A stretch of 64,000 bases of DNA, taken from the NCBI GenBank assembly GCA_029858565.1, contig JAOUEV010000001.1:128001-192000 (forward strand), written 5' to 3'. The notes beneath the pieces are model-generated. The model was not told the origin of the DNA. It did not search any database and saw only the letters and a program-made list of their open reading frames with translations. A program made the position numbers and the translations under genes. Positions 3,296 to 60,141 of this stretch are shown here, one piece after another (position 1 is the first letter of the stretch; each line of letters begins with the position of its first letter). This stretch comes from Nitrospirota bacterium. Lineage in GTDB: Bacteria > Nitrospirota > UBA9217.

Positions 3296-4537
<1,242 letters not shown>

Positions 4538-4660: not shown

Positions 4661-4752
4661 TCGCGCAAAGCCGCAAAGAACGCAAAGGAAATCCAAGAGC
4701 CATAGCTGCAGCAATTTATTGACTTTCTTTGCGGCTTGGCGCCTTTGCGCGA
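4661..4752. repeat. Inverted-repeat element of CGCAAAG-type 8/9-mers
   Basis: TCGCGCAAAGCCGCAAAGAACGCAAAG (4661-4687) ... CTTTGCGGCTTGGCGCCTTTGCGCGA (4727-4752). Confidence 0.85.
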
Positions 4753-7099: not shown

Positions 7100-8512
7100 A
7101 TGAGGGAACTGACGAGAGGCGAAGACTTCTACGACGGGAACGCACTGCTGGGCGATCCCGTGCACGGATATATTTCCTTCACCACTCCGCGGCCGGATGT
7201 TCCCGAAAAAACGGAAAAAGACCTGATCGATACGGCGTGGATGCAGCGGCTCCGGCAGATCTATCAGCTTCAGAGCGCGCGCTGGGTCTATCCATCGGCC
7301 GAGCACAGCCGCTTCCAGCACTCCCTTGGCGCCATGCATCTTGCGGGCCGCTTCGCCCGCCATCTCTATCCGTCCCTCAGGGCGGCGGTCCCCGACTGCC
7401 CGTCCGCCAACTTCATCGAGGAACTTCTCCGCGTTGCCGCTCTGCTGCACGATGTCGGCCACGGTCCGTTCGGCCATTTCTTTGATGACAATTTTCTCGA
7501 ACATTTCGGCCTCACCCACGAGAAGCTCGGCCAGCTGATCATCAGGAACGAGCTGGGGTCCATCCTCCGCGAGATCAAGAGGAGCCCGTCGGGCGAGTTC
7601 GCCAAGCGGGAGCGCCTCGATCCGGACCAGATCGCCTTCCTCATCGGCAAAGGCGCGACGGCCGTGTCAAAGCAGCCCCGCTGGCTCACCTTCCTCCAGC
7701 CCATGCTCTCGGGCATCTACACGGTGGACAACCTGGACTATGTGCTGCGGGACGCGTATATGTGCGGCGTGGCCGTGGGGCCCGTGGACATCGACCGGCT
7801 GATGTACTACACCTTCTTCACCGACAAGGGACTGACGCTTCACAAGTCCGGCCTGTCGGCGCTGAACATGTTCCTGAACGCCCGGCTGTACATGTACACC
7901 AACGTCTACTACCATCGCACCACGCGGGCCATTGACCAGCACTTGAAGGAGCTGTTCAAGGACACTATGGCCGCGCTCTTTCCGTACAACCCCGCCGAGA
8001 ACCTTGGGGCCTACCTTGATCTGACCGACTGGTCGTTGCTCGAAGCGGTCCGGAAATGGGGCAAGGAAAGCGATGGAGCAACGACAAAGCTGGGTGCTGA
8101 ATGGGCCACAATCCTGGCCCGTGAAGTAAAATGGAAGATGGCCTACGATGTAACCCTGTCGATGCGGTACTTTGCCAAGGGGAACACGCTCATCGAGGCC
8201 CCCGAGATGGTCAAGCGGGTGCGGAAAAAGCTTCCCGAAAAGCTCAAAGACCTTCAGTTCTGCGTGGACATGGCGAGCCAGGACCCGCGCCCCATCAACC
8301 CCCTCATGATGGGCGAGCGCCAGATCCACGTGTTCAATCCCTCGACCCGGAAGGTCGAGAAGGAACCGCTCAAGGATTTTTTCGACTACATCCCGGCGCG
8401 GGTCGTCCAATGCCGCGTCTTCACGCTCAACCACGACCACGATCTTCTGCTTGCCGACATCGTGGAGCAGGTCCTGGGGATCCAGGAAGACAGCATCAAG
8501 ACGAACGTGTGA
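7100..8512 (+). CDS. HD-domain phosphohydrolase (SAMHD1/dNTPase-like)
   Basis: DPVHGYI, QRLRQIYQL, HSRFQHSLG, ALLHDVGHGPFGH, DNLDYVLRD. Confidence 0.9.
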   Translation: MRELTRGEDFYDGNALLGDPVHGYISFTTPRPDVPEKTEKDLIDTAWMQRLRQIYQLQSARWVYPSAEHSRFQHSLGAMHLAGRFARHLYPSLRAAVPDCPSANFIEELLRVAALLHDVGHGPFGHFFDDNFLEHFGLTHEKLGQLIIRNELGSILREIKRSPSGEFAKRERLDPDQIAFLIGKGATAVSKQPRWLTFLQPMLSGIYTVDNLDYVLRDAYMCGVAVGPVDIDRLMYYTFFTDKGLTLHKSGLSALNMFLNARLYMYTNVYYHRTTRAIDQHLKELFKDTMAALFPYNPAENLGAYLDLTDWSLLEAVRKWGKESDGATTKLGAEWATILAREVKWKMAYDVTLSMRYFAKGNTLIEAPEMVKRVRKKLPEKLKDLQFCVDMASQDPRPINPLMMGERQIHVFNPSTRKVEKEPLKDFFDYIPARVVQCRVFTLNHDHDLLLADIVEQVLGIQEDSIKTNV

Positions 8513-10274: not shown

Positions 10275-12104
10275 CTATGGCACATAGAGCGCCTTCACCA
10301 TGCTGACAATGGCCTTCCAGGAGATTCCCTCGTAGTCCAGCAGTTCACCGGATTTCCCGCTCCTGGGAATACTTCTGATCGCAAGGGAATGGATCGGCAC
10401 GGGACGTTTTGAAAGGGTTGCCCGCACAGCATCGGCGATGCCGCCCTCGGGAACATGGTCTTCCACAACGATGATGCATCCTGTGTCGTCCGCCGCCTGT
10501 CTGATCGTCGCGATGTCGACCGGTTTGACGCTGTAAAGGTCGATCACGCGGATGTATATATCCTCCTTTTTCAGCTCTTCATAGGCCTTCAGCGCCTCAT
10601 GGACCGTAATGCCGGCTGCGACTATCGTCGCCATATCCCCTGAGTTCGACCGCAGGACCTTGCTGCCGCCTATCCAGAAAGCTTCGTCGTTGCGATATAA
10701 AACCGCGGTAGGATTGCGCGTTGTCCTGAGATAGCTGATGCCGGTGAATTGCGCCATCAGTTCCGTCAGTTTTTCCGCGGACACGGCGTCCGAGGGATAG
10801 AGCACCACGCTCCGCTGGACGCTTCTGAACATGGCCAGGTCCTCCAGCCCCATCTGGGAGGAGCCGTCCTCGCCGATCGACACGCCGGCGTGGGATCCGC
10901 AGAACTTGATGTTCCCGTTGGAATAGGCTGCCATGCGCACCTGGTCAAAAGCACGGGTAAAGAAAGCCGCAAAGGTGGATACAAAGGGGGTCTTGCCCCG
11001 GAGAGCCATACCGAGCGCGGCGCCTACCATATTCTGTTCAGCAATGAACATTTCAAAGAACCGCTCGGGATGTTTTGCCTTGAACAGCTCTGCATAGGTC
11101 GAATTGCTCACCTCGCCGTCAAGGACCGCCAGATCGGGATACTGCACTGCAAGGCGCGCCAGGGCCGTGCCATAGGCATAGCGCGTCGCGATCGGTTTGT
11201 CAGGATCATAGAGCGATGCCGGGGCCTTGATACTTTGCTGGTATGCCGGTCTCTCGTTGTCGGGCTTTGTCAGTGAACCGTGAACCGACTTGTCCACGGG
11301 CCCCAGCTCTTTGAGCGCCAGCTCCAGTTCATCCGAATTCAGCGCTTTGCCATGCCAGCCGTTCTTGTTCTCTATGAAAGAGACGCCCTTTCCCTTGATG
11401 GTCCGTGCGATGATCATGCAGGGCTTGTCGCCGGACTTCATTGCCTGGCCATAGGCGGTCTTGATGAGATAAGGGTCATGGCCGTCGATCTCAACCGCCA
11501 GCCAGCCGAATGCTTCTGCCCGCTTTCGGTAGATATCAAGAGCATGTCCGTACATGGTCTCTCCCCGCTGACCGAGCCGGTTCACATCCACGATCGCCGT
11601 GAGGTTCCCGAGCTTATAGTAGGAAGCGATCGCCATGGCCTCCCAGACCGATCCTTCGGCCATTTCGCCGTCACCCAGAAGCACATAGGTGCGGTAGGGG
11701 AGCTTGTCGAGGAACTTCGCGTTCAGCGCCATGCCTACGCCGATCGACAGACCCTGTCCAAGCGAGCCGGTGGCGGCTTCTGTATACCTGAACGCGGGCG
11801 TAGGATGGCCTTCCAAAGGACTTCCGAACTTCCTGAGGCTCATAAGTTCATCGTCGGTGACAGCGCCTGCCGCTGCCCAGAGCGCGTAAAACAGCGGGGA
11901 AGCGTGGCCTTTTGAAAAAATGAGCCTGTCGTTGTTGGGATGGCCGGGATCGTCAAGGTCATAGCTGAAGATGCCGCTGAAGAGAAGCACGGTCATCAGG
12001 TCGGCCGCTGAAAGGGAGGATGTGGGATGGCCGGAACCGGCCCTGGTCGTCGAGACCAGGATATTATAACGGATCAATTTTGCGAGTGCTGATAGATCGT
12101 TCAC
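10275..12104 (-). CDS. tkt: Transketolase (short ~610-aa type)
   Basis: SGHPTSSLS, SKGHA, TGSLGQG, GDGE TPP motif, IAEQNM, GEDGSSQM; GTG start with RBS GAGGAG. Confidence 0.93.
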   Translation of the reverse strand: MNDLSALAKLIRYNILVSTTRAGSGHPTSSLSAADLMTVLLFSGIFSYDLDDPGHPNNDRLIFSKGHASPLFYALWAAAGAVTDDELMSLRKFGSPLEGHPTPAFRYTEAATGSLGQGLSIGVGMALNAKFLDKLPYRTYVLLGDGEMAEGSVWEAMAIASYYKLGNLTAIVDVNRLGQRGETMYGHALDIYRKRAEAFGWLAVEIDGHDPYLIKTAYGQAMKSGDKPCMIIARTIKGKGVSFIENKNGWHGKALNSDELELALKELGPVDKSVHGSLTKPDNERPAYQQSIKAPASLYDPDKPIATRYAYGTALARLAVQYPDLAVLDGEVSNSTYAELFKAKHPERFFEMFIAEQNMVGAALGMALRGKTPFVSTFAAFFTRAFDQVRMAAYSNGNIKFCGSHAGVSIGEDGSSQMGLEDLAMFRSVQRSVVLYPSDAVSAEKLTELMAQFTGISYLRTTRNPTAVLYRNDEAFWIGGSKVLRSNSGDMATIVAAGITVHEALKAYEELKKEDIYIRVIDLYSVKPVDIATIRQAADDTGCIIVVEDHVPEGGIADAVRATLSKRPVPIHSLAIRSIPRSGKSGELLDYEGISWKAIVSMVKALYVP

Positions 12105-12156: not shown

Positions 12157-12672
12157 CTAGGGCAGCAGGCTTTTTACATCCACCGGCGGCTCGTCCTGGG
12201 ACCCTTCTCCCTTGGCCTTGCCTCCGATCTCCAGTCCTGCTTCGCGGTAATAATTGTACCCCGGATACTTGCCCGGCCCGCTGATAAGCAGGTCCTCCTT
12301 CTCATACACCAGGTTCGTGCGGAGATATTCTCCCATCTCGAAGTCCGGCGTGAGCTGGATCGCGCAGGTCGGGCAGGCTTCTTCGCAGTACCCGCAGAAG
12401 ATGCAGCGGGAGAAATTTATCCGAAAGAACTCCGGGTAGCGCCTTCCCATTTGGTCTTCGGTCGCCTGGAGCGAAATGCAGTCCACCGGGCAGGCAACCG
12501 CGCAGAGATGACAGGCAACGCAACGCTCCCGTCCGTCAGGATCGCGGGAGAGAATGATCCTGCCGCGCCACCGGGGCGCGAGCGTGGAGCGCTCCTCGGG
12601 GTACTGGACCGTGATCCGCTTCCGGAACATGGTCATGAAGACCGTGAGTATGGATCGCAGAATACTAAACAT
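12157..12672 (-). CDS. nuoI: NADH-quinone oxidoreductase subunit I
   Basis: Two CxxCxxCxxxCP ferredoxin motifs; TVQYPEE; start at MFSILRS. Confidence 0.95.
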
Positions 12673-12673
12673 G

Positions 12674-12809
12674 GTTGTTGACACTGAGGACACTGACAAG
12701 GCCTTTGACACAGATAACGGCGGATAGGAGCCTATGAAAATGCTGGATGAATCTGTTACAAATATCACGCATCTTCATAGCCGTTCTCTGAGTCTTCAGT
12801 GTCTACAAC
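12674..12809. repeat. Inverted-repeat element filling the nuoH-nuoI junction
   Basis: GTTGTTGACACTGAGGACACTGA (12674-12696) vs TCTGAGTCTTCAGTGTCTACAAC (12787-12809): 19/23 complementary. Confidence 0.85.
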
Positions 12810-13762
12810 TATCCTTTCATCAGTATCCATGCACCAGTCAGTAGCAAATTCCCCACCGCCAGAGGCAGGCAGACCTTCCATCCAAAGGACATCAGCTGGT
12901 CGTACCTGGGCCGGGGAAGACTGGCGCGCAGCAGGATGAACAGACAGATGAAAAAGAACGTCTTGAGCGTGAACCACACCAGCGGCGGCAGCCAGGGGCC
13001 GAGCCAGCCGCCGAAGAACAGGACCGTGATGAGCGACGAGATCAAGGTGATGCCGAGATATTCGCCGACGAAGAACAGGCCGAACTTGAGGCCCGAGTAC
13101 TCCGAGTGAAAGCCCGCGACCAGTTCGCTTTCCGCCTCGGGCAGGTCAAAGGGCAGGCGGTTGGTCTCCGCGGTCCCGGCGATCAGGAACAGCATGAAGC
13201 CGACGAACTGATAGCGGATGAACCAGCCGTCCCGCTGGGCTTCGATGATGCGGTTCAGGTCAAAGGACCCGGCGAGCATCACCACGCCCATGAGCGACAG
13301 GCCCATGAAGGCTTCGTACGAAAGCATCTGGGCTGACGATCGGAGCCCGCCGAGGATCGAGTACTTGCTTCCCGAGGCCCATCCCGCGAGAACGACGCTG
13401 TACACGCCAAGTGACGACATGGCGAGGAAGAAGAGCAGCCCCATGTTCAATTCCACGACCTGGATGCCCGGAGCAAAAGGCACCACGGCAAAGGACATGA
13501 GCGTGACCGTGACGATAATGGCCGGCGCCATGATGAAGACCGGTTTGTTCGCGAAAGGCGGGACCCAGTCTTCCTTGAAGAGGACCTTGATCATGTCCGC
13601 AACGACCTGGAGCAGGCCGAAGGGGCCGACGCGGTTCGGGCCGTACCGGTCCTGCCAGAGCGCCAGCAGACGCCGTTCGAGCCAGATCAGCATCCCGCCA
13701 ACGGCCAGGAGGGTGAAGAGGACGGCGAAGGAGACCAGTATGTGAGTAAGGCTGTTGCTCAT
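12809..13762 (-). CDS. nuoH: NADH-quinone oxidoreductase subunit H
   Basis: ERR...QDRYGPNRVGPFG, AETNRLPFDLPEAESELVAG, PRPRYDQLM; start at MSNSL. Confidence 0.96.
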   Translation of the reverse strand: MSNSLTHILVSFAVLFTLLAVGGMLIWLERRLLALWQDRYGPNRVGPFGLLQVVADMIKVLFKEDWVPPFANKPVFIMAPAIIVTVTLMSFAVVPFAPGIQVVELNMGLLFFLAMSSLGVYSVVLAGWASGSKYSILGGLRSSAQMLSYEAFMGLSLMGVVMLAGSFDLNRIIEAQRDGWFIRYQFVGFMLFLIAGTAETNRLPFDLPEAESELVAGFHSEYSGLKFGLFFVGEYLGITLISSLITVLFFGGWLGPWLPPLVWFTLKTFFFICLFILLRASLPRPRYDQLMSFGWKVCLPLAVGNLLLTGAWILMKG

Positions 13763-13793
13763 GGCAATACGGATAGAACAGAAGGACCATTGA

Positions 13794-13886
13794 TCGCACG
13801 AAGGCACGAAGTCACGAAGAAAGGCAATTTCACTCTCCTGGTCTTGATCAGAGTTGACTCCTCCGTGTCTTCGTGGCTTCGTGCGA
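13794..13886. repeat. Inverted-repeat element (CACGAAG 8-mers) at the nuoG-nuoH junction
   Basis: TCGCACGAAGGCACGAAGTCACGAAG (13794-13819) vs CTCCGTGTCTTCGTGGCTTCGTGCGA (13861-13886): 23/26. Confidence 0.88.
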
Positions 13887-13907
13887 GACTGCTTTTGACA
13901 TCGTCCG

Positions 13908-16463
13908 CTACATTGTCATCCGAGGATCCTGCTGATCGTCCATCGGTCTTCTCTTGCCAAGAGCAGGCGATAAATTACTCAATTCCTCAGATCCGAAAAT
14001 GAAGTATTGCGGTGATTCTGCCGGGTCTTCACTAAGATCGATCCGGAAATACTCTGATTGGCCGCCTATCATTTTGATCAATCTCGTGCCTGTGCTCTCT
14101 TTGCGAAGGTCTCCGCCCACTTCCTGCTGGAACCTGTTCAACGCCTGGACCGAGTTCCATCCCGGGGACCAGTACCGGGAAATGAGCGGAGCGGGCGGCT
14201 GCTGTTCCGAGCCTTCCATGGAAAAGGCGAGCGGGCTGTCCGCGTCATACGCGGGTTTTGGTTCATGAACGGTTCGGTCGGCGATCATGGAGGTCCTGCC
14301 GCTGTAACGGTGCGACTGGCGGGGAACCTTCTGGCCGGCGATCCGGAAACCTGCAGGAGGCACCAGATCGGCCAGCTCCGCGAAGAGCGGCAGTTCCCGG
14401 CTCATCTTGCGGATAATGTCGTCTAAGGTCGCGAAACCGCCGGGAGCCGGGTGTTGCGTCGCCATCATTATAGCATTGATCCACTTCCAGCCTGCTTGAA
14501 TATCTCCTCTTGGCACGAAGACCTCATTGTACCGCTGCGGCCGGGTCTCGTAATTGATCAGCGTTCCGGATGATTCTGCAAAGGTCGCCGCGGGCAGGAC
14601 AACGTCAGCCTGGTCAGCTGTTCGATGCATGATATGGTCAAGAACGATGATATTCTTCGCTCTTCCGAGGAACTGTTCGACGCTTGCTTCGTCAGCTCTG
14701 CGGTAGAGGTCGTTCTCCAGGATAATGACCGTGTCCGCTAAACCATCCTGCATGACCGTGAATGCCTCGTCAAGGGTCCTTCCGCCAAGGAGTGCTGCAC
14801 CTAGGGTGTTGCATTCATGTACTGCGAATGCTAATTGCACAGCTTTTCCCTTTAGCTGGAGCGCCCGGGCGATGTTCGCTGCTGTTTGTACTACTCCCGT
14901 GCTTTGGCAGCCTGTCCCGGATACGATCAGAGGATGCTTGGCATTCATGAGAACCGTTGCGATCTCTTTGGCAAGAGCGTCAACGTCCTGCCCCCTCACT
15001 TCGGTCCTCTCTCCAGAGGATAAGGGAGGGATATTGGGATCGAGCTTCTGAGATATCGCTGACGCCAGCCGAACAATGTCCTGGATCGGAACGTGCGCTG
15101 TCTTTGCCGCGACATCATCGAGCCGGGTCTCTGCAGGAGAAATGATGTAGACCGGGCTTTTCGCGCTCTGCCCTGCGTTCCGCACGGCATTATCGTCCCA
15201 GAGCGGCAGTTTCATGGCTGCCGCGATCTCGAACTGTTTGTTCCTGCTTGCCTGACGCACTGCAAGGGCCATCAGGGGGGCTGTATTCGGTAGGTCCTCG
15301 CCAAGTATCAGGACAGCATCGGCGGCCTGTATCTCTCGGAGCGAAGGAGAAGAGGCAGGGCTGTTCTTCTGAATGTCGATAATCAGCGAAACAAGGGATT
15401 GTTCCTCGTTCCCAATGCCGCTGAAAAAGCTATTCTCCCCGGCCAGCGTTCTGAGAGCGAAGTTCGATTCCAGCGACGCACGGGGCGAGCCTATGGCTAT
15501 GACGCCTTTTGCTTTGGACAGGATATCGGCGATATGGGTGAGTACCGTCTCTCTATCAGCTGGCTTCCCCCCCTCGCCCCGGCCCTCTCCCGCGGGGGGA
15601 GAGGGAGATTTTACCAGGGGAGTGCGGATGCGCTTATGGCTGTTCACGAACTCGTACCCGAACCTGCCCCGGTCGCAGAGGAAATAACCGTTAATGTCGC
15701 GGTTATAGCGGTTCATGATGCGCCGCAGAGACCCGTATCGTTCACCGGCGATGGTATTGCACCCCACGCCGCAATGGACGCAGATGGACGGCGCCGTCTG
15801 GAGGTCCCACTTGCGGGTGTAATGCTCCTTGAGGGTCTTGTCCGTGAACACGCCGGTGGGACAGATCTCGATCAGGTTGCCGCTGAACTCGCTTTCGAGG
15901 GGGCCGTCCGCGTGCCTGCCGAAATAGACGTGGTCGTGGGCGCCAAAGACGTTCAGGTCCCTGCCGCCGGCCACACCTCGATAGAAGCGGACGCAGCGGT
16001 AGCACTGGATGCAGCGGTTCATCTCATGATTGAGAAAGGGGCCCAGGTCCTGGTTCTGGTGCGTGCGTTTTCTGAAACGGCTCCGCCGATAATTATGGCC
16101 CGTCATGACCGTCATATCCTGGAGATGGCATTCTCCTCCTTCGTCGCAGACCGGACAGTCATGGGGATGGTTCAGCATGAGCTGTTCGACAATGCCCTTT
16201 CTGAACGCCCGGGCTTCGGGGTCGTCCACGGAGATGCGCAGTCCTTCGGAAACCGGCGTCATGCAGGACATGATGATGCGGCCCTTGGCATCCTTGTCAT
16301 CCTTGTACTGCTTCACCGCGCATTGCCTGCATGCGCCCACGGCATGCAGGGCCGGGTGCCAGCAGAAGTAAGGCAGGTCAAAGCCCAGGGAGAGGCAGGC
16401 CTGGAGGAGGTTCTGGTCAGGCTTGACCTGGTGGGGTTTGTTGTCGATAAAAATCGTCACCAT
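13908..16463 (-). CDS. nuoG: NADH-quinone oxidoreductase subunit G
   Basis: FCWHP...GACRQC, HPHDCPVCDEGGECHLQD, CIQCYRC, CVHCGVGC (N7) motifs; E. coli-type long NuoG. Confidence 0.96.
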   Translation of the reverse strand: MVTIFIDNKPHQVKPDQNLLQACLSLGFDLPYFCWHPALHAVGACRQCAVKQYKDDKDAKGRIIMSCMTPVSEGLRISVDDPEARAFRKGIVEQLMLNHPHDCPVCDEGGECHLQDMTVMTGHNYRRSRFRKRTHQNQDLGPFLNHEMNRCIQCYRCVRFYRGVAGGRDLNVFGAHDHVYFGRHADGPLESEFSGNLIEICPTGVFTDKTLKEHYTRKWDLQTAPSICVHCGVGCNTIAGERYGSLRRIMNRYNRDINGYFLCDRGRFGYEFVNSHKRIRTPLVKSPSPPAGEGRGEGGKPADRETVLTHIADILSKAKGVIAIGSPRASLESNFALRTLAGENSFFSGIGNEEQSLVSLIIDIQKNSPASSPSLREIQAADAVLILGEDLPNTAPLMALAVRQASRNKQFEIAAAMKLPLWDDNAVRNAGQSAKSPVYIISPAETRLDDVAAKTAHVPIQDIVRLASAISQKLDPNIPPLSSGERTEVRGQDVDALAKEIATVLMNAKHPLIVSGTGCQSTGVVQTAANIARALQLKGKAVQLAFAVHECNTLGAALLGGRTLDEAFTVMQDGLADTVIILENDLYRRADEASVEQFLGRAKNIIVLDHIMHRTADQADVVLPAATFAESSGTLINYETRPQRYNEVFVPRGDIQAGWKWINAIMMATQHPAPGGFATLDDIIRKMSRELPLFAELADLVPPAGFRIAGQKVPRQSHRYSGRTSMIADRTVHEPKPAYDADSPLAFSMEGSEQQPPAPLISRYWSPGWNSVQALNRFQQEVGGDLRKESTGTRLIKMIGGQSEYFRIDLSEDPAESPQYFIFGSEELSNLSPALGKRRPMDDQQDPRMTM

Positions 16464-16468
16464 AGACT

Positions 16469-16947
16469 TTTAGCCACGGAAGAGGCGGATACTTCTATAA
16501 AAAAGCACAGTAAACCTCTTTTGCGAACGTAAGGATTATCTAAAGTACACGACGGACTATTTTCAATTTATCAGCGAAATTGATGAGAAGGCCTACTTTC
16601 TTGCCGGTGGCCTTCAGGTAATTGATAAGCTGTGCTTCGTGAATCTTTGCCAGCTCAGAAACTGCTTTAAGTTCGACTATGACGGCGTCCTCGACAAGAA
16701 GGTCAGCGAAATATTCACCTACGAGCTTTTCCTCAAAGAATACGCTGATGGGAGCTTGTTGGCCCGCTTGCAGGCCTTTTGAAGCCAGCTTGATCATCAT
16801 GGCATTCTCATATACTTTCTCGGCAAAACCAAAGCCCAGCTGATTATGAACGTCGTAGGCAGCAGAAATGATCTTGTCGGTAATATCGGCAAGATGCAGG
16901 TTCGATTCTGTTGTTGTCATGTGTTATCCGCCTCTTCCGTGGCTAAA
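16469..16947. mobile_element. Putative nuclease cassette: GxxExxY gene between perfect 23-bp terminal inverted repeats
   Basis: TTTAGCCACGGAAGAGGCGGATA (16469-16491) is the exact reverse complement of 16925-16947; flanks TAGACT/TAGATT; interrupts the nuoF-nuoG junction. Confidence 0.7.
16540..16920 (-). CDS. GxxExxY protein (PD-(D/E)XK nuclease superfamily)
   Basis: GFAEKVY motif, ADLLVE, VELKAV (ExK), QLINY, GLLINF; AT-richer than the flanking genes. Confidence 0.92.
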   Translation of the reverse strand: MTTTESNLHLADITDKIISAAYDVHNQLGFGFAEKVYENAMMIKLASKGLQAGQQAPISVFFEEKLVGEYFADLLVEDAVIVELKAVSELAKIHEAQLINYLKATGKKVGLLINFADKLKIVRRVL

Positions 16948-18223
16948 TAGATTTCCAGGGACAATGTTTGTTGTTGATATGCGATTCAAAATCCTCCAGG
17001 AAATACTTCAACGCGCTCTGGAGAGGCTCCACCGCTCCCGGCGCCAGGGCGCAGAAGGTATTGCCCGGTCCGAGAAGCCTGCACTGTTCCGTAAGCAGGT
17101 CCAGATCTGACATTTCGCCCTTGCCTGTCTCAATGGCCTGGAGCGTCCTTTCGATCCATGGCAGGCCTTCGCGGCAGGGCGTGCACCAGCCACAGGACTC
17201 GCGGCGGAAGAACTTTTCCAGACTATGCACGAACCCGACCGGGCAGGTCCGGTCATCGAGCACGGTGATCGTCCCGGTGCCCATGCGGCTGCCCGCTTTC
17301 ATGACCGAGTCGAAGTCCATTCTGACGTTCATGTGATCCGGCGTCAGGAAGTCGGTTGAAGCGCCGCCAGGCATAAATGCCCTCAGGCGGTAACCATCCA
17401 TCATGCCCCCGGCCTGCTCCTCGATCAGGTCGCTGACCATCGTTCCCATGGGCAATTCCCAGAGACCCGGGTTCCTGACCCTGCCGCTGACTCCATAGAT
17501 CTTCGTACCGCTATCATTGATCCCGCCGATCGACTTGAACCAGTCAGCACCGTTGTTCACGATATGGGGAAGGTTTACCACCGTTTCCACATTGTTCACT
17601 ACCGTCGGCCGTCCCCAGAGACCGGAGACCTGGGGAAAGGGCGGTTTGGCGCGCGGGGTGGCGCGTTTGCCTTCCAGCGCATTTATCAAGGCGGTCTCTT
17701 CGCCGCAGATATACCTGCCGGCGCTGGTGTGGATCCGCAGATCAAGCGAGAATCCGGAGCCGAGGATGTTTTCGCCCAACAGCTTATTTTCGTATGCTTC
17801 TGCAATGGCCTTGTTCAGCAGCAGCTCCGCACGGCCGTATCCCTGGCGCAGGAATATGTACGCATGGGAAGCCTGGATCGCATAAGCGGCCACGACGATG
17901 CCTTCAATGAGCTGGTGAGGATCTCCTTCGAGCAGGTAACGGTCCTTGAACGCTCCTGGCTCCATTTCATCGGCATTCACAATGAAGTACTTTTGTTTTG
18001 GCGCGTTCTCACCCATGGGCACAAAGCTCCACTTCATGCCTGTGGGAAAACCCGCGCCGCCGCGACCCCGAAGGTTCGATGCCTTTACTTGGACCTGCAC
18101 ATCCTGCGGGGACATGGTCGAGAGCATCGTACGGACGGCCCGGTATCCGCCGGCCTGCTCGTATTCCATGAGCGATAGCGGGTCCTCGTTGGGCCGGATG
18201 TTCTTTGTCAGTGGTCGTTCCAT
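16943..18223 (-). CDS. nuoF: NADH-quinone oxidoreductase subunit F
   Basis: LRGRGGAGFPTG, NADEMEPG, YICGEETAL, ESCGWCTPCREG. Confidence 0.97.
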   Translation of the reverse strand: MERPLTKNIRPNEDPLSLMEYEQAGGYRAVRTMLSTMSPQDVQVQVKASNLRGRGGAGFPTGMKWSFVPMGENAPKQKYFIVNADEMEPGAFKDRYLLEGDPHQLIEGIVVAAYAIQASHAYIFLRQGYGRAELLLNKAIAEAYENKLLGENILGSGFSLDLRIHTSAGRYICGEETALINALEGKRATPRAKPPFPQVSGLWGRPTVVNNVETVVNLPHIVNNGADWFKSIGGINDSGTKIYGVSGRVRNPGLWELPMGTMVSDLIEEQAGGMMDGYRLRAFMPGGASTDFLTPDHMNVRMDFDSVMKAGSRMGTGTITVLDDRTCPVGFVHSLEKFFRRESCGWCTPCREGLPWIERTLQAIETGKGEMSDLDLLTEQCRLLGPGNTFCALAPGAVEPLQSALKYFLEDFESHINNKHCPWKSI

Positions 18224-18232
18224 AGAATCTTA

Positions 18233-18325
18233 TTTAGACACTGAGGACACTGAAAAAATATGAATGACTCAACATCAGAAGTTTCTTCGTCTTCTCATAT
18301 GTTGTCAGTGTCCTCAGTGTCTAAA
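18233..18325. repeat. Perfect 21-bp inverted-repeat element at the nuoE-nuoF junction
   Basis: TTTAGACACTGAGGACACTGA (18233-18253) / TCAGTGTCCTCAGTGTCTAAA (18305-18325). Confidence 0.92.
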
Positions 18326-18326
18326 A

Positions 18327-18791
18327 TCAGCTGTATTTGCTTAATATCTCATCAATTGTTTCCGGCGTCACCGGTCCGAACAGTTCGTCGTCCACCATCA
18401 TGGCAGGCGCGCGGTCGCAGGCGCCGAGGCATGAGGCAGGGAGGAGCGTGAACCTGTTGTCTCCGGTTGTCTCGCCGTATCCGATCCCGAGCTTTGTGCT
18501 GATCAGCTTATACAGGTCATCATGCCCCAGGGACCAGCAGACCATGCTGTCGCAGAGCGCGATCACATGGCGGCCGACAGGCTTGCGGAAGATGAAGCTG
18601 TAGAACGTGGCAACAGCGTCCAGTTCGGCAGGCGTCATGGAGAGCTGCGCTGCAACATCCCGCAGGCTCGCGTCGGATACCCATCCTCGCTTTTTCTGCA
18701 CCACGCGCAAGGCCTCGATGGCCGCCGCTTCCGGCCGTTCGCAGTGCTTCAGTTCCTCGGATATTTCCTGTTTTTCCTGCTCAGTCAGCAT
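18327..18791 (-). CDS. nuoE: NADH-quinone oxidoreductase subunit E
   Basis: VATFYS, CDSMVC, CLGAC...AP [2Fe-2S] motifs. Confidence 0.96.
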   Translation of the reverse strand: MLTEQEKQEISEELKHCERPEAAAIEALRVVQKKRGWVSDASLRDVAAQLSMTPAELDAVATFYSFIFRKPVGRHVIALCDSMVCWSLGHDDLYKLISTKLGIGYGETTGDNRFTLLPASCLGACDRAPAMMVDDELFGPVTPETIDEILSKYS

Positions 18792-18865
18792 ATCCAGTCA
18801 ATTCCTGCCTCCAGGGGGGAGAGGGGCCTATATATCTGATCTTACCCTGCGTCTCCGTGTCCAAT

Positions 18866-20614
18866 TTATCTATCCAAATCCGCCAGAATAAAATCAATGC
18901 TCCCCAGGATCGCCATGAGGTCGGCGATCATCAGACCTTTTGCGATCTTCGGCACCATCTGCATGTGCGGGAACGAAGGCGTGCGGATGCGGGTGCGGTA
19001 GGAGTGGATGCCTCCGTCGCTCACGAGATAATATCCGTTGCTGCCCTTTGTCGCTTCGATGCCCATGAACGCCTCGCCCGCTGGTATGACCGGGCCCCAG
19101 GATAGGCCCAGAAAATGGGTGATCAGGGTCTCAATGTCCTTCAGGGTCCGTTCCTTGCGCGGCGGGGTCGTGAGCGGGTGATCGGATTTATAGGATCCCT
19201 CGGGCATGTTCTTCATGCACTGTTCAACGATCCGCATGCTCTGGCGGATCTCCTCGATGCGGACCACGGCGCGGTCATAGCAGTCGCCGTTCACTGCAGT
19301 GGGGATATCGAAGTCGAACATCTCGTAGCCCGAGTAAGGCCGCTTCCTTCGAAAGTCCCAATCGAGTCCGCAGGCGCGGAGACCCGGTCCGGTCACTCCC
19401 CACTCGACCGCATCTTCGAGCGAATAGGCGCCGACTCCCCGGGTCCTTCCTTTGAAGATGCTGTTCCGCATGACGATACTGTCGTATTCCTTGAGCCGGT
19501 GCGGAAGATAGGCGAGGAAATCCCTCACCAGCCGGTCCCAGCCTTTTGGCAGGTCCTGAGAAACACCGCCGATCCGGAACCAGGCCGGGTGCATGCGGCC
19601 GCCGCAGACCGCTTCGACGATCTCAAAGACCTTTTCCCGGTCAGAGAAAGTGTAGAACACCGGAGACAAGGCCCCCACGTCCTGGGCAAAGGTGCCGTAC
19701 CAGACCAGATGGCTCTGGATGCGGAACAGCTCTGCCATCATCACGCGGATAACCTTTACCCGGTCGGGCACCTCGATCCCCGCGAGCTTCTCGACCGCCA
19801 GTACATATGCCAGGTTGTTCATGACACCGCCGAAGTAGTCGATGCGGTCCGTGTAGGGAATGAAGGTGTGCCAGGTCTGGCGCTCGGCCATCTTTTCCGC
19901 GCCGCGGTGATGATAGCCGATGTCCGGGACAGCGTCCACGATCTCTTCTCCGTCGAGCTGCAGGATGATGCGCAGGAGACCGTGCGTACCCGGGTGCTGG
20001 GGGCCAAGGTTCAGGAACAGGTGGTCCGTGCCGTCCTTTGCCGGCGCCATGCCCCATTCCTCGGGCCGGAACTTGAGCGCCTGCTGCGCAATGTCCATCT
20101 GGTCCTCGGGCATGCGGAACTGTCCCATTTCCGTTGCCCGCGCGGGATGCTCCTTCCTGAGCGGGTGGCCTTCCCATGCGGGCGGCAGCAGGATGCGCTT
20201 GAGATGGGGGTGGCCGTTGAAGCGGATGCCGAAGAGGTCCCATGCTTCCCGTTCGTACCAGTTCGCGTTCCGCCAGAGTCCGGTGATGGACGGCAGGGTG
20301 TGAGTATCTCCCAGGAGCGGGACCTTGATCCTGATGTCCTCGTTCCGGTCAAAGGACAGCAGGTGGTACACAACAGTGAAATCGGACATGGGCTGGTCTG
20401 GTCTGTTCGTCCGCGTGCGTTCGTCAATGACCGTGAGGTCATAGAGCATTTTGTAGGGCCGGCCGATCTTCGTCTTGAGATGCAGGAGTACGTCGGCGGT
20501 CCGGTCAGGGGAGATCCAGAGCGTGGGGATGTTGTCCTTTGCGGGCTGTACCGCGAGGATCGCGGGGCCGAAGGAGCTGCTTAGGTCGGCGATGATAGGG
20601 TTAGGAAAAGTCAT
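18866..20614 (-). CDS. nuoC: NADH-quinone oxidoreductase fused subunit C/D
   Basis: Nuo[12 protein letters not shown]...GHPLRK fused to Nuo[12 protein letters not shown]...YHHRG...DLDR. Confidence 0.96.
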
Positions 20615-20628
20615 AAAAACAAGCCATG

Positions 20629-20783
20629 TTTTACCGCAGAGGACGCGGAGGACGCCGAGAAAAGCCTAAAAAAAGCGCAAGAGCCGATCCTGTTTTAGAA
20701 GGATAAAACTAATGCAAACAGGCTCATATGCTCCATAAGAATATATCTGACCTTTGAATTTCTCTGCGTCCTCTGCGGTGAAA
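20629..20783. repeat. Inverted-repeat element (CGCAGAGGA 9-mers) at the nuoB-nuoCD junction
   Basis: TTTTACCGCAGAGGACGCGGAG (20629-20650) vs CTCTGCGTCCTCTGCGGTGAAA (20762-20783): 20/22. Confidence 0.88.
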
Positions 20784-20795
20784 AAGCCGTTTTTG

Positions 20796-21410
20796 TTAGA
20801 CTTCATCGGGTGAACGCAGCACCGAAGCCTTCACCCGTTCCGCCCGCTTCATATCCCTCATGCATGGCGGTTCGGGAGCGGTCGTATCCTGCCGTCCCGC
20901 GACCCAGGACAGGGGGCGTTTCTCCTTGCCCACCTTGGCGCTCAGGAGCAGGAGCCCTTCCATGAAGGCTTCGGGCCGGGGAGGGCAGCCGGGAACGTAG
21001 ACGTCAACGGGCAGGAGCTTGTCGACTCCCTGGACCACGCTGTAGATATCGTACATGCCGCCGGAATTGGCGCAGGAGCCCATGGAGATTACCCAGCGGG
21101 GCTCCATCATCTGTTCGTAGAGCCGTTTGATCACCGGCGCCATCTTGATGAACACCGTGCCGGCCACGATCATGAGGTCAGCTTCGCGGGGCGTGCCCCG
21201 GAGCACTTCTGCGCCATACCGCGCGATGTCGTACTTGCTCGTAAGGCTGGCGGCCATCTCCACGTAGCAGCACGAGAGGCCGAAATTGAAGGGCCAGATC
21301 GAGTTCTTCCGGCCCCAGGCGACCATGTCCTCAAGCCGCGTCAGGAGCAGGCTTTGGCGCACTGCGTCGTCAATGTCTGGGATGCTGCTTCTGGTTGTAG
21401 ACCAGTTCAT
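20796..21410 (-). CDS. nuoB: NADH-quinone oxidoreductase subunit B
   Basis: [29 protein letters not shown]. Confidence 0.96.
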
Positions 21411-21440
21411 ACGTTATAATCCCCGGAGCGGGTCAGCTTT

Positions 21441-21565
21441 AGAGCTTTAAGCGGTAGAGCGGTAAGCAGCCACAACCAGTTATAGAGCATTAAGCGGTAG
21501 AACCGTTAGCAACCGACTGTTTATCTTCCCTTTGTGCCTGCTTACGGCTTATCGCTTACTGCTTG
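21441..21565. repeat. AAGCGGTA-type arrays with an inverted copy at the nuoA-nuoB junction
   Basis: AGAGCTTTAAGCGGTAGAGCGGTAAGCAG (21441-21469), a second copy at 21484-21512, and inverse CTGCTTACGGCTTATCGCTTACTGCTT overlapping the nuoA stop. Confidence 0.7.
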
Positions 21566-21936
21566 CGACTCGATTTAACCTTTCCCCAGTCAAGAGCTCC
21601 CTGACGCAAGATGTACATGAACGCGACGGCGAACACCCCGGTGAACAGCAGGACCTCCACGTACCCGGTCCACCCGATCTCCCTCACCGACAGTGCCCAG
21701 ATGTACAGATAGACCGCCTCGACATCGAAGATAAGAAAGAACATGGCGATGAGGTAGAACTTGACGTCGAACCGGCCGCCCACGGTGCCGGTGGACTGTA
21801 CCCCGGACTCATAGGGCTCATCGGTCGCGCGCTCATGGTGGCGCTGGCCAAGCAGGGCCGAGAGCGCAACAATGAACGCGACAATGGTGACCGTCGCAAG
21901 GAAGTACAGGACCAGCGGGAACAAAGGACCATCCAA
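21556..21936 (-). CDS. nuoA: NADH-quinone oxidoreductase subunit A
   Basis: PYESG, KFYLIAMFFLIFDVE, GALDW; TTG start chosen from upstream AGGAG (alternative ATG at 21972). Confidence 0.9.
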   Translation of the reverse strand: MDGPLFPLVLYFLATVTIVAFIVALSALLGQRHHERATDEPYESGVQSTGTVGGRFDVKFYLIAMFFLIFDVEAVYLYIWALSVREIGWTGYVEVLLFTGVFAVAFMYILRQGALDWGKVKSSRKQ

Positions 21937-22052
21937 GGCGATTTCGCTCCTGTTATTGCTTTTCTCAAGCATACCGAGTGCCCGGGGGAATGTCAAGCAG
22001 GCATAAGCGGAATGCGCGGTCCGCGCGGGTCTTTCATTCGGCCATATAGCCG

Positions 22053-25856: not shown

Positions 25857-25950
25857 TCTCGCGCAAAGACGCCAAGCCGCAAAGAAAGGCAATATCAAAC
25901 CAAGTCATCTGGTTAAAATTTTCTTCGCGCCTTTGCGGCTTTGCGCGAGA
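25857..25950. repeat. Inverted-repeat element of CGCAAAG-type 8-mers
   Basis: TCTCGCGCAAAGACGCCAAGCCGCAAAG ... CTTCGCGCCTTTGCGGCTTTGCGCGAGA; same family as 4661-4752. Confidence 0.87.
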
Positions 25951-36106: not shown

Positions 36107-36785
36107 AATTTGCCGCGGGAGCGGCTGCCGGTCGGGGAAGGACCGCACCTGGTTGCTGCTGCGGTGCAGTATACACGAACTTCCACTCGTTGTACTTGGT
36201 CTTTCCCTCGAATTCCCTGTTCTCGTCCGGGAAGTCCGCCTGCTTGAACGGTTCCTTGTCACTTGAACTGTATACGCCGATGAGCCTGTTCCCCTTGGTC
36301 TGATCGCGCAGCAGCTCGAAATCCTCGCCGGTGATGGGGTCCTTGTACTTCTGCCGGAGATGGCGTTTTCCCCGTGCCGTACGCCCGTCGCTCAGCAGGT
36401 CATCGATGTTCCGAGGATACTCGAGCCTGCCCGGGATGGCCGTAGTGTAACGCTCGATGGCCAACCGGTACTGGTTGCCCCGGAACAGCAGTTCCTCCTC
36501 TTTTTCCCTTGCCATGACCGCCTGCCAGTACTTTCCCGCCGCGCCCATTGAGATGCCGATGATGACAATTGCCGCAAGCAGCGCGATGTAGGTGAAACCG
36601 GAAGAAGTGCGGAGTGCGGAGTGCGGAGTGCGGAATAAGAAACGGCGGATCTGGTGAGGAACATCCGGCCGGGGGATGTGGTGTTGATTTTTCTCCTCGT
36701 CGCAGGTGACGAAGCGAAGGGTCACGTGCTCCGGCGCGTCATTCACTTCGCACTTCGCACTCCGCACTCCGCACTGCGTCTTCAT
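36105..36785 (-). CDS. Type II secretion pseudopilin-like protein with repeat-derived long leader
   Basis: G|FTYIALL prepilin site; REKEEELLFRG, HLRQKYKDPITG; ATGA overlap with upstream gene stop. Confidence 0.85.
   Translation of the reverse strand: MKTQCGVRSAKCEVNDAPEHVTLRFVTCDEEKNQHHIPRPDVPHQIRRFLFRTPHSALRTSSGFTYIALLAAIVIIGISMGAAGKYWQAVMAREKEEELLFRGNQYRLAIERYTTAIPGRLEYPRNIDDLLSDGRTARGKRHLRQKYKDPITGEDFELLRDQTKGNRLIGVYSSSDKEPFKQADFPDENREFEGKTKYNEWKFVYTAPQQQPGAVLPRPAAAPAAN
36606..36775. repeat. Heptamer inverted-repeat element inside the prepilin leader
   Basis: (AGTGCGG)x4 at 36606-36633; CACTTCG CACTTCG CACTCCG CACTCCG at 36744-36771. Confidence 0.9.
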
Positions 36786-59430: not shown

Positions 59431-60141
59431 TTACTCCTGACGTCTGACTTCTGTCTCCTGGTTCCTGAACTTTACAAGCGCTTCCCGTGCCGCGCGCTGT
59501 TCCGCTTCCTTTTTGCTCCTGCCAATGCCGCGGCCGTAGACCTCTCCTTTGATCGAAAGCTCGACGGTAAACTCCTTCTGGTGGTCCGGGCCGGACTCGG
59601 TGACGACGCGGTAGTCCGGGAGCGTCCGCATCCGTTCCTGGCAGAGCTCCTGGAGATCGGTCTTGGCATCGGCCCCGGTCCCGGCCGCAGGCGCGTTATT
59701 CAGGGAATCAAGAAAGAACCTGCTGATGAACGCGGCAGCCGGCGGAAGTCCGCCGTCCAGGTAGAGGGAGGCGATCAGGGCTTCGAGGGAGTCGGCCAGA
59801 AGCGAGTCCTTGTCCCGACCGCCGGTCTGCGCCTCGCCCTTGCCGAGGCGCAGGAACTCGCCCAGCCCGATCGACCGGGCAATGGCCGCCAGGGACTGCT
59901 CGCTCACGACCGAGGCGCGGAGGCGCGACAGCTCACCCTCGGGCGACTGCGGGCGCATCTCCATCAGGATCTCGCTCACGACGAGGTTCAGGACCGCGTC
60001 GCCCAGGAATTCCATGCGTTCATTGTGCTCGGAGAGCCTGTTCTCGTTGGCGAAGGATTTATGAGTAAGGGCGCGCTCCAGCAGGACGGCATTCCTGAAA
60101 TCATAGGACATCCGCTGCTGGAGCGCGTGGAACTGAGGCAT
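59431..60141 (-). CDS. rnc: Ribonuclease III
   Basis: NERMEFLGDAVL, ADSLEALI, dsRBD DAKTDLQE...G.SKKEAEQ. Confidence 0.96.
   Translation of the reverse strand: MPQFHALQQRMSYDFRNAVLLERALTHKSFANENRLSEHNERMEFLGDAVLNLVVSEILMEMRPQSPEGELSRLRASVVSEQSLAAIARSIGLGEFLRLGKGEAQTGGRDKDSLLADSLEALIASLYLDGGLPPAAAFISRFFLDSLNNAPAAGTGADAKTDLQELCQERMRTLPDYRVVTESGPDHQKEFTVELSIKGEVYGRGIGRSKKEAEQRAAREALVKFRNQETEVRRQE

Follow-up and report, generated by a model that had tools for sequence, protein, structure and literature searches.

Why does almost every junction in one nuo gene cluster hold an inverted repeat, and what kind of sequence is it? The cluster, nuoA-B-CD-E-F-G-H-I, lies on the minus strand of a 64,000-nucleotide stretch of contig JAOUEV010000001.1 (positions 128,001 to 192,000), here called the window, from the assembly GCA_029858565.1 of a Nitrospirota bacterium (GTDB lineage Bacteria; Nitrospirota; UBA9217). 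An earlier description of this DNA, made from the letters alone (the sequence-only reading), had proposed that the repeats are non-autonomous derivatives which target stop/start junctions and stay harmless because the RNA stem restores translational coupling, or that they tune subunit stoichiometry. Our analysis of the window, of the 3.9-Mb assembly and of related genomes suggests, with moderate confidence, that they are hairpin cassettes of the type known as intervening sequences (IVS) in 23S rRNA, which have colonised gene junctions and for which nuo is the main sink in this lineage.

Inverted repeats are present in six of the eight nuoA-I junctions (Table 1). Five of these, at H-I, G-H, F-G, E-F and B-CD, are strong, and their predicted folds compare favourably with 100 dinucleotide shuffles of each junction (z-scores from -2.5 to -6.8). 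The sixth, at A-B, had been listed with the others and turned out to be borderline, as its score was reached 89 times in a shuffled genome; it is located 6 nt from the stop and 47 nt from the ATG. The E-F element lies 1 nt from the nuoE stop and 9 nt from the nuoF ATG and has a perfect stem of 21 bp, just as it had been described. For H-I the same description had the arms ending at the nuoH stop and 1 nt from the nuoI ATG. In our measurement they overlap the stop by 4 nt and the ATG by 2 nt, and at the base of the stem the nuoH stop region pairs with the nuoI AUG. In the F-G cassette the nuoF stop is located within the 5' arm (-5 nt) and the opposite arm stops 5 nt short of the nuoG ATG. The element at B-CD, which is covered at about 96-97% identity by contigs from two other sequencing runs, has the stop at 12 nt and the ATG at 14 nt, while at G-H two 26-nt arms of 88% complementarity leave 21 nt to the stop and 31 nt to the ATG. 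A search of Rfam gave no match at the gathering score for these sequences, only a sub-threshold match of the E-F hairpin to a microRNA precursor (28.7 bits versus 80).

The CD-E junction differs from the others in lacking an inverted repeat with a score of at least 10, and its fold is no better than the shuffles (z +2.0). What had been regarded as a remnant in this junction is a solo arm-like string of 18 nt, whose 13-mer occurs three times in the genome, once in a true arm on contig C60. A remnant is thus possible and even plausible, but unprovable. The motifs GGAG, GAGG and AGGA are absent from positions -20 to -4 of nuoF, nuoG, nuoI, nuoH and nuoCD, in agreement with the lack of a recognisable Shine-Dalgarno sequence noted earlier for the first three genes. 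None of four promoter-like matches lies inside a junction element, and no terminator-like sites were found on the minus strand within the nuo elements.

The nuo elements are members of a genome-wide class. A uniform inverted-repeat scan of the assembly (loops of at least 9 nt) yielded 392 inverted repeats, 118 of which have internally periodic sequence in both arms. At a score of at least 17 there are 101 real repeats and none in a Markov-shuffled genome, and at a score of at least 15 there are 176 versus 15. An arm consists of two to four tandem units of 7-9 nt, with 60 of the 118 elements showing a period of 8 nt, 40 one of 7 nt and 18 one of 9 nt, which bears out the 8/9-nt periodicity first seen in the nuo arms. 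The median arm is 25 nt long and the median loop about 50 nt. Several arm families can be distinguished (CGCAAAG, GCGGATT, GTGCGGA, CACGAAG, GACACTGAG, CACGGAG/CGCAGAG and GACGAGA), and they have a common unit grammar, C-R-C-N-R-A-K, which is present in 72 of the 118 5' arms (7 in shuffled arms) and present twice or more in 62 (0.2 in shuffled arms). The purine-rich arm is the 5' arm in 104 of the 118 elements. Unit polarity is reversed in only four, all with 277-698 nt between the arms, and these cases are probably the space between two adjacent elements. A reading of the polarity as orientation relative to transcription was dropped: an inverted repeat is identical on both strands, so the purine-arm-first polarity belongs to the element itself.

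The loops, in contrast to the arms, are unrelated to one another, with two similar pairs among 96 loops, one of them an identical duplicate. Their G+C content is 44.5%, compared to 52.3% in the arms, and of 104 loops, 78 have a lower G+C content than their own arms. The earlier claim of unrelated, AT-richer spacers therefore holds, though loop G+C is near that of ordinary intergenic DNA (49%). Besides the nuo elements, the window contains four further periodic-arm elements, at 535-1308 (GCGGATT), 4663-4742 (CGCAAAG), 25857-25950 (CGCAAAG) and 36606-36775 (GTGCGGA). The first of these belongs to a nested cluster which crosses the left edge of the window (contig C14 127946-129308) and has arms of both polarities.

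Placement of the class follows gene junctions. Co-directional junctions hold 100 of the 118 elements, convergent junctions 7 and divergent junctions 6; 3 are called inside genes and 2 are at contig ends. This distribution fits the counts of junction types in the genome (2857 co-directional, 267 convergent, 271 divergent) better than it fits junction lengths. When the element is removed and the remaining gap is measured in 87 clean co-directional cases (the other 13 of the 100 were left out owing to gene calls that extended more than 15 nt into an arm), the residual gap has a median of 78 nt, compared to 64 nt in element-free co-directional junctions (p=0.09). If insertion were random for each non-coding base, the expected median would be 325 nt (p=5e-31), under a null whose long-gap tail may include genes missed by the caller. 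The elements lie within 12 nt of the stop in 32 of the 87 cases and within 12 nt of the start in 13, and the stop-side share of the residual gap is 0.42 on average (p=0.003). The GCGGATT, GACGAGA, GACACTGAG and CACGGAG families are close to the stop (medians 0-12 nt), while the CGCAAAG and CACGAAG families are 40-75 nt away. Targeting of stop/start junctions, as put forward in the sequence-only reading, thus stands as far as a non-random placement in junctions with preference for the stop side is concerned; that the elements lie near both codons is partly a simple consequence of their insertion into short junctions. In two convergent gaps (C131:73189-73360 and C102:27877-28031) elements abut both stops (-2/-1 and -3/-8) and take up the entire space between the two genes.

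Within this genome nuo is an exceptional cluster of such elements. With one criterion for the whole genome and junction occupancy permuted, six of eight consecutive nuo junctions are occupied at a score of at least 13, a number which permutation reached in 1 of 5000 trials, and five of eight are occupied at a score of at least 15 (7 of 5000). No other locus of the genome reaches four of eight. Two more general enrichments were considered and rejected, namely one in long same-strand gene runs (median run of 9.5 genes for occupied junctions versus 12 for others) and one beside Nuo-like paralogues outside the operon (2 of 190 flanking genes, odds ratio 1.2, p=0.68).

Comparison of the orthologous operon in 13 genomes of the same family and two more distant ones reveals how these junctions have changed. 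At G-H, 8 of 10 family members have a gap of -8 to +5 nt, compared to 145 nt here, and the B-CD, E-F and H-I gaps are 4-22 nt in some relatives and 74-271 nt in others. The tight junctions of the relatives indicate that the inserts are derived. Of 84 nuo junctions examined in the relatives, 20 contain inverted repeats with a score of at least 12; these are at different junctions and have units typical of each genome (ACAGGAT in G003; GCAAATT and CCGCAGATTA in G008), and 3 of the 13 relatives are without any. Since other elements occupy other nuo junctions in the relatives, the nuo elements are insertions. An integron attC reading was dropped, the nuo gene order being conserved across relatives.

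Some members of the class carry a small open reading frame (ORF) in the loop. All seven PF13366 (PDDEXK_3) genes of the genome are located inside periodic-arm loops, as are three of the five clear PF05635 (S23p) genes. Each of 12 cargo genes points in the same direction as both of its neighbours (2^-12 if orientation were free), and they look like promoter-less passengers of host operons. A GAGG motif in the purine-rich arm is present 10-13 nt before the cargo ATG, which may explain the fixed polarity of the arms. The arm families CGCAAAG, CACGAAG, CACAGAG/CACGGAG and GTGCGGA are found around both cargo cassettes and empty hairpins, and this sharing makes a link between cargo-bearing and cargo-less forms plausible. 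To that extent the description of the hairpins as non-autonomous derivatives is supported. The nuo elements carry no S23p ORF; instead, the F-G cassette holds a PDDEXK_3 gene, which is co-oriented with nuo and keeps the D...ExK motif. No solved structure was found for its protein by sequence.

The F-G cassette has orthologues at the same junction in three other genera (G012, G014 and G001), where the nuclease is 73%, 63% and 55% identical, respectively, and a remnant in G017, while paralogues in its own genome are at most 49% identical. Judged from these identities, the cassette is inherited. Its stem has been maintained. In the outer 12-bp stem both partners have changed in three of the 12 pairs (one of them, for instance, reads G-C, A-U or U-A), and covariation is 0.267 versus 0.138 in shuffles, a value reached by 8 of 500, with all slid registers lower, in a small sample of five sequences of which one row is off by one base.

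Of 80 more distantly related metagenome contigs encoding a NuoF relative, three (L016, L041 and L063) have elements abutting nuoF, and in all three these elements extend from the stop to a few nt before the next ATG. In L041 (NuoF 51% identical) the F-G junction likewise holds a GxxExxY cassette, of another PDDEXK_3 subtype. The encoded protein is closest to a different paralogue of our genome (51% versus 43%), so this cassette arrived independently. In one relative of the same genus (L010, G003, 3888-4259) a GxxExxY cassette with ACAGGAT-type arms occupies nuoE-nuoF in place of F-G, and it encodes a protein that shares about 50% identity with those at F-G. The arm GACACTGAGGACACTGA has a downstream inverted partner (at most three mismatches) in 16 of 80 loci and an upstream partner in one. 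The 16 loci are in records titled Nitrospirota or Nitrospirae, Vicinamibacteria and Anaerolineae, and about 70 chance 17-mer matches are expected in that collection, accounting for most of the remaining loci. Long pure arrays of the GACACTGAG 9-mer are present in four further records (L096, L138, L169 and L172, titled Dehalococcoidia, Deltaproteobacteria and Verrucomicrobiota), three of them at contig ends, as if breaking assemblies.

Table 1. Features of the nuo cluster and its junctions (window positions; score, inverted-repeat score; z, RNA-fold z-score)
Feature	Position	Strand	Description
nuoA-B-CD-E-F-G-H-I cluster	12157..21972	(-)	host of the elements
nuoA	about 21556-21972	(-)	
nuoB	20796-21410	(-)	
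nuoCD	18866-20614	(-)	
nuoE	18327-18791	(-)	
nuoF	16943-18223	(-)	
nuoG	13908-16463	(-)	
nuoH	12809-13762	(-)	
nuoI	12157-12672	(-)	
H-I element	12671-12812	(-)	GACACTGAG-type 9-mer arms, score 15.5, loop 66 nt, z -4.2
G-H element	13794-13886	(-)	arms of three CACGAAG-N 8-mers, loop 41 nt, z -2.5
F-G cassette	16469-16947	(-)	23-nt perfect arms (TTTAGCCACGGAAGAGGCGGATA), 433-nt loop with nuclease ORF, z -4.2
F-G cargo ORF	16540..16920	(-)	126 aa, GxxExxY protein of PD-(D/E)XK superfamily; PF13366 E 2e-41, TIGR04256 E 1e-41
E-F element	18233-18325	(-)	GACACTGAG units, 31-nt arms, 21 bp perfect, loop 31 nt, z -6.8
CD-E solo arm-like string	18845-18862	(-)	GGACACGGAGACGCAGGG, 18 nt, 3 nt past nuoCD stop, no partner arm
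B-CD element	20629-20783	(-)	CGCAGAGGA-type 9-mer arms, score 17, loop 111 nt, z -4.3
A-B weak inverted repeat	21458-21549	(-)	borderline, score 13, GTAAGC-like periodic units, z -0.3
sigma-70-like promoter match before nuoA	21968..21996	(-)	TTGACA-17-TATGCT, 10/12

The following course of events would account for the presence of IVS-type cassettes in nuo. Cassettes would enter gene junctions or be retained there, frequently directly at the stop codon, and would be transcribed together with the host operon. The loop would be empty or would carry a promoter-less small ORF for a GxxExxY PD-(D/E)XK nuclease or an S23p four-helix-bundle protein, and the purine-rich 5' arm would give this ORF a Shine-Dalgarno-like sequence. 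The insert might be tolerated through the long stem formed in the transcript. RNase III may excise the stem, as with the 23S rRNA IVS, or the stem may merely loop the insert out, and either way the next start codon would stay reachable for the terminating ribosome. The geometry at H-I, E-F and F-G fits such an unmasking of the start by the terminating ribosome, and an effect on coupling or on subunit stoichiometry would be conceivable at these junctions. The sole RNase III domain match of the genome is located in the same window (59704-60090, minus strand; PF14622, E 5.7e-42).

A number of observations weigh against this reading or parts of it. The geometry at the three junctions is equally expected from any insertion into a tight junction. 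CGCAAAG, the commonest family, has distances of about 42 and 56 nt to the two codons, and the gene calls are those of a simple in-house caller, with starts less sure than stops. Mismatches in the sense-strand stems of the 100 co-directional elements comprise 62 G.U and 61 A.C, without the excess of G.U which selection on the sense RNA should favour, at the modest power that 123 mismatches allow. Pairing could therefore be kept at the DNA level, and selection on the stems at the RNA level is not shown by these equal counts. Target-site duplication was not detected either: the mean best flank repeat in 77 elements is 2.82 nt versus 2.67 nt in permuted pairs. None of the 12 Y1_Tnp genes is flanked by periodic arms, nor does a transposase flank the elements; with no transposase tied to them, their mobility is something that we infer. 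The unrelated loops are not expected from copy-and-paste transposition.

Further points against the reading come from the comparison with other genomes and with rRNA. A strain-level pair of filled and empty junctions was not seen among the sequences compared. The metagenome scan with NuoF gave no match above 68% identity, and the short and mixed contigs of four other runs, which cover the B-CD, A-B and F-G arm regions, include no clean joint across an empty junction; contig joints at arm positions look like other hairpins bearing the same arms. The 23S gene of this genome (C115:4773-7773) is free of inverted repeats scoring at least 11 and of runs with a 7-9-nt period, and the complete 23S genes of three relatives, at about 3.0 kb, have the same length as here, with no IVS seen. 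From these two results, the class is not seen in rRNA here.

It might be argued that the nuo elements are not tolerated selfish inserts at all but selected intercistronic RNA elements, that is, stabilisers or processing sites which set the output of complex I subunits. The unique density of elements at nuo, a site which is rich in relatives too, would agree with such a role, and so would the strongly stable stems, the pairing kept in the inherited F-G cassette and the lack of Shine-Dalgarno motifs before the downstream genes. However, no junction element apart from F-G is conserved, since junctions, units and loops vary by genome and three of the 13 relatives have none at the threshold used. 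The lack of a sense-strand G.U excess and the presence of the class in convergent and divergent gaps are also difficult to reconcile with it, and we consider this explanation unlikely.

The equality of the two kinds of mismatch, being symmetric between the strands, would fit a process at the DNA level such as the movement of hairpins like the repetitive extragenic palindromic (REP) sequences and REPINs by a Y1 transposase (RAYT or IS200/IS605-type) that acts on single-stranded DNA hairpins. Twelve Y1_Tnp matches in the genome, the extragenic distribution of the elements and the missing target-site duplication, a feature of that family, are in line with this. But the Y1_Tnp genes are not the ones found between periodic arms; two of the 12 are flanked by classical GTAGG-type REP-like palindromes instead. 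The unrelated loops and a cargo of nuclease and S23p ORFs, not of RAYT genes, also speak against a Y1 origin, which is distinctly unlikely. The REP-like palindromes (GTAGGGGCGGGTTT-type), which flank the Y1 transposase genes at C19:19735-20350 and C82:36838-37488, are a separate repeat system.

Paired repeats in Geobacter metallireducens have been proposed to be DNA binding sites for a global regulator or a nucleoid protein (IHF/HU), and one of their units, TCTCCGTS[Y], complements CACGGAGA (passages of PMC2700814). Applied to our elements this proposal is very improbable, because most of them are located in operons beside stops and not at promoters (6 of the 118 are divergent) and some carry ORFs. 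The same architecture is present in the RNase III-excised 23S IVS as described in passages of PMC4990558, the same arm sequence is found in three phyla and relatives differ in which junctions are occupied. Chance complementarity or ordinary terminators would suit the chance-level A-B repeat and the empty CD-E junction, but as an explanation of most elements they carry next to no weight and are already refuted for the five strong junctions by the excess of real over shuffled repeats (101 to 0), the lack of minus-strand terminator-like sites and loops of 31-433 nt.

Colonisation of junctions by IVS-type cassettes might, in a wider and rather doubtful form, extend to a group of unrecognised mobile elements. 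These would be promoter-less hairpin cassettes that home to the stop side of junctions (or to rRNA helices in other lineages) and are moved or maintained by their GxxExxY or S23p cargo. Their arms would not be copied with the loop but made or homogenised by some templated process, and their removal or looping out as RNA would make them intervening sequences of bacterial mRNA, with nuoF-nuoG as a recurrent landing site across phyla. The six inserts in an essential respiratory operon provide a natural system for studying how subunit output is balanced where normally coupled junctions are split by 90-480 nt, in which RNase III processing and stem-mediated re-initiation can be tested against each other.

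There is also a practical aspect, as the arms are often read into the ends of ORFs. Our in-house caller extended ORFs into arms in 13 of 100 cases, and gene callers are likely to be prone to such mis-extension at these elements. Open frames that run into the arms are present in the F-G cassette of L002 (G012), in L041 at 7770-8162 and at the end of the L041 nuoG, where they yield N- or C-terminal peptides such as ...HRDTE.../...QRHRG....

In the surroundings of the cluster, a transketolase gene (window 10275-12104) is located downstream of nuoI instead of nuoJ-N. NuoL/M/N-like genes are present on separate contigs (C85:70990-75482 and C142:32903-37324), and the genome element lists contain no element among these clusters. 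Contig C142 also carries NuoE/F paralogues, with one element immediately before the NuoF paralogue (C142:26304-26389). Elsewhere in the genome, a CRISPR-like array (C32:9550-10360) has at least seven repeats with a core 18-nt palindrome, TCCCCGCACGTGCGGGGA, at a spacing of 122 nt.

How do these elements compare with known repeat systems? REP, BIME and REPIN sequences are short palindromes, characterised by a GTAG head and by conserved pair spacers; they are associated with RAYT transposases, and REPs affect mRNA stability. Like them, the elements described here are extragenic hairpins, often located in operons after stops and without target duplications, but they differ in their tandem-unit arms, their unrelated loops and the lack of a flanked Y1 gene. 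Miniature inverted-repeat transposable elements (MITEs) of the Correia, ERIC and RUP type are likewise co-transcribed intergenic inverted-repeat elements, and Correia hairpins are substrates of RNase III. Copies of such MITEs share internal sequence and have target-site duplications, and neither is found in the elements here. The STRR heptamers of heterocystous cyanobacteria are tandem heptanucleotide repeats in intercistronic operon regions and resemble our arms in this respect, though they are described as tandem arrays and are not known as paired inverted arms with cargo. In a literature search that was not complete, no paper was found that treats these elements as one class or places them in operon junctions.

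A closer likeness is seen in Geobacter metallireducens, for which passages of PMC2700814 describe 24, 21 and 8 pairs of tandem 8-, 8/9- and 7-mer sites on opposite strands at variable distance, one pair being located between proB and proA. As in our genome, three to five tandem units of 7-9 nt are paired on opposite strands with variable spacing, several families are present per genome, and the Geobacter unit TCTCCGTS[Y] is the complement of a unit found here, CACGGAGA. The authors proposed these pairs as binding sites for IHF/HU or a regulator, and the passages concerned make no mention of hairpin RNA, cargo ORFs, a link to IVS or junction statistics.

The 23S rRNA IVS are, with the Geobacter pairs, the closest known counterparts. 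The IVS of Coxiella burnetii, according to passages of PMC4990558, is a 428-nt element with an S23p ORF, before which an AG-rich stretch and two to three tandem GACAGAT heptamers are located, their number being strain-variable, and RNase III cleaves at the start of the first repeat. Intervening sequences are inserted in helix 25 or 45 of 23S rRNA, that of Coxiella in helix 45, while the elements here are located between protein-coding genes, and most of the latter have no ORF or have a GxxExxY nuclease ORF. What the two have in common, as far as those passages go, is an inverted-repeat stem around a loop, tandem units in the 5' part and co-transcription with the host gene. The Coxiella loop ORF belongs to PF05635, the family of five genes in this genome of which three lie in periodic-arm loops. 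If this likeness reflects a common nature, three groups hitherto treated separately would form one class of hairpin cassettes across phyla: the 23S IVS, the paired repeats of Geobacter, and the many GxxExxY and S23p genes that occur as orphans in environmental bacteria.

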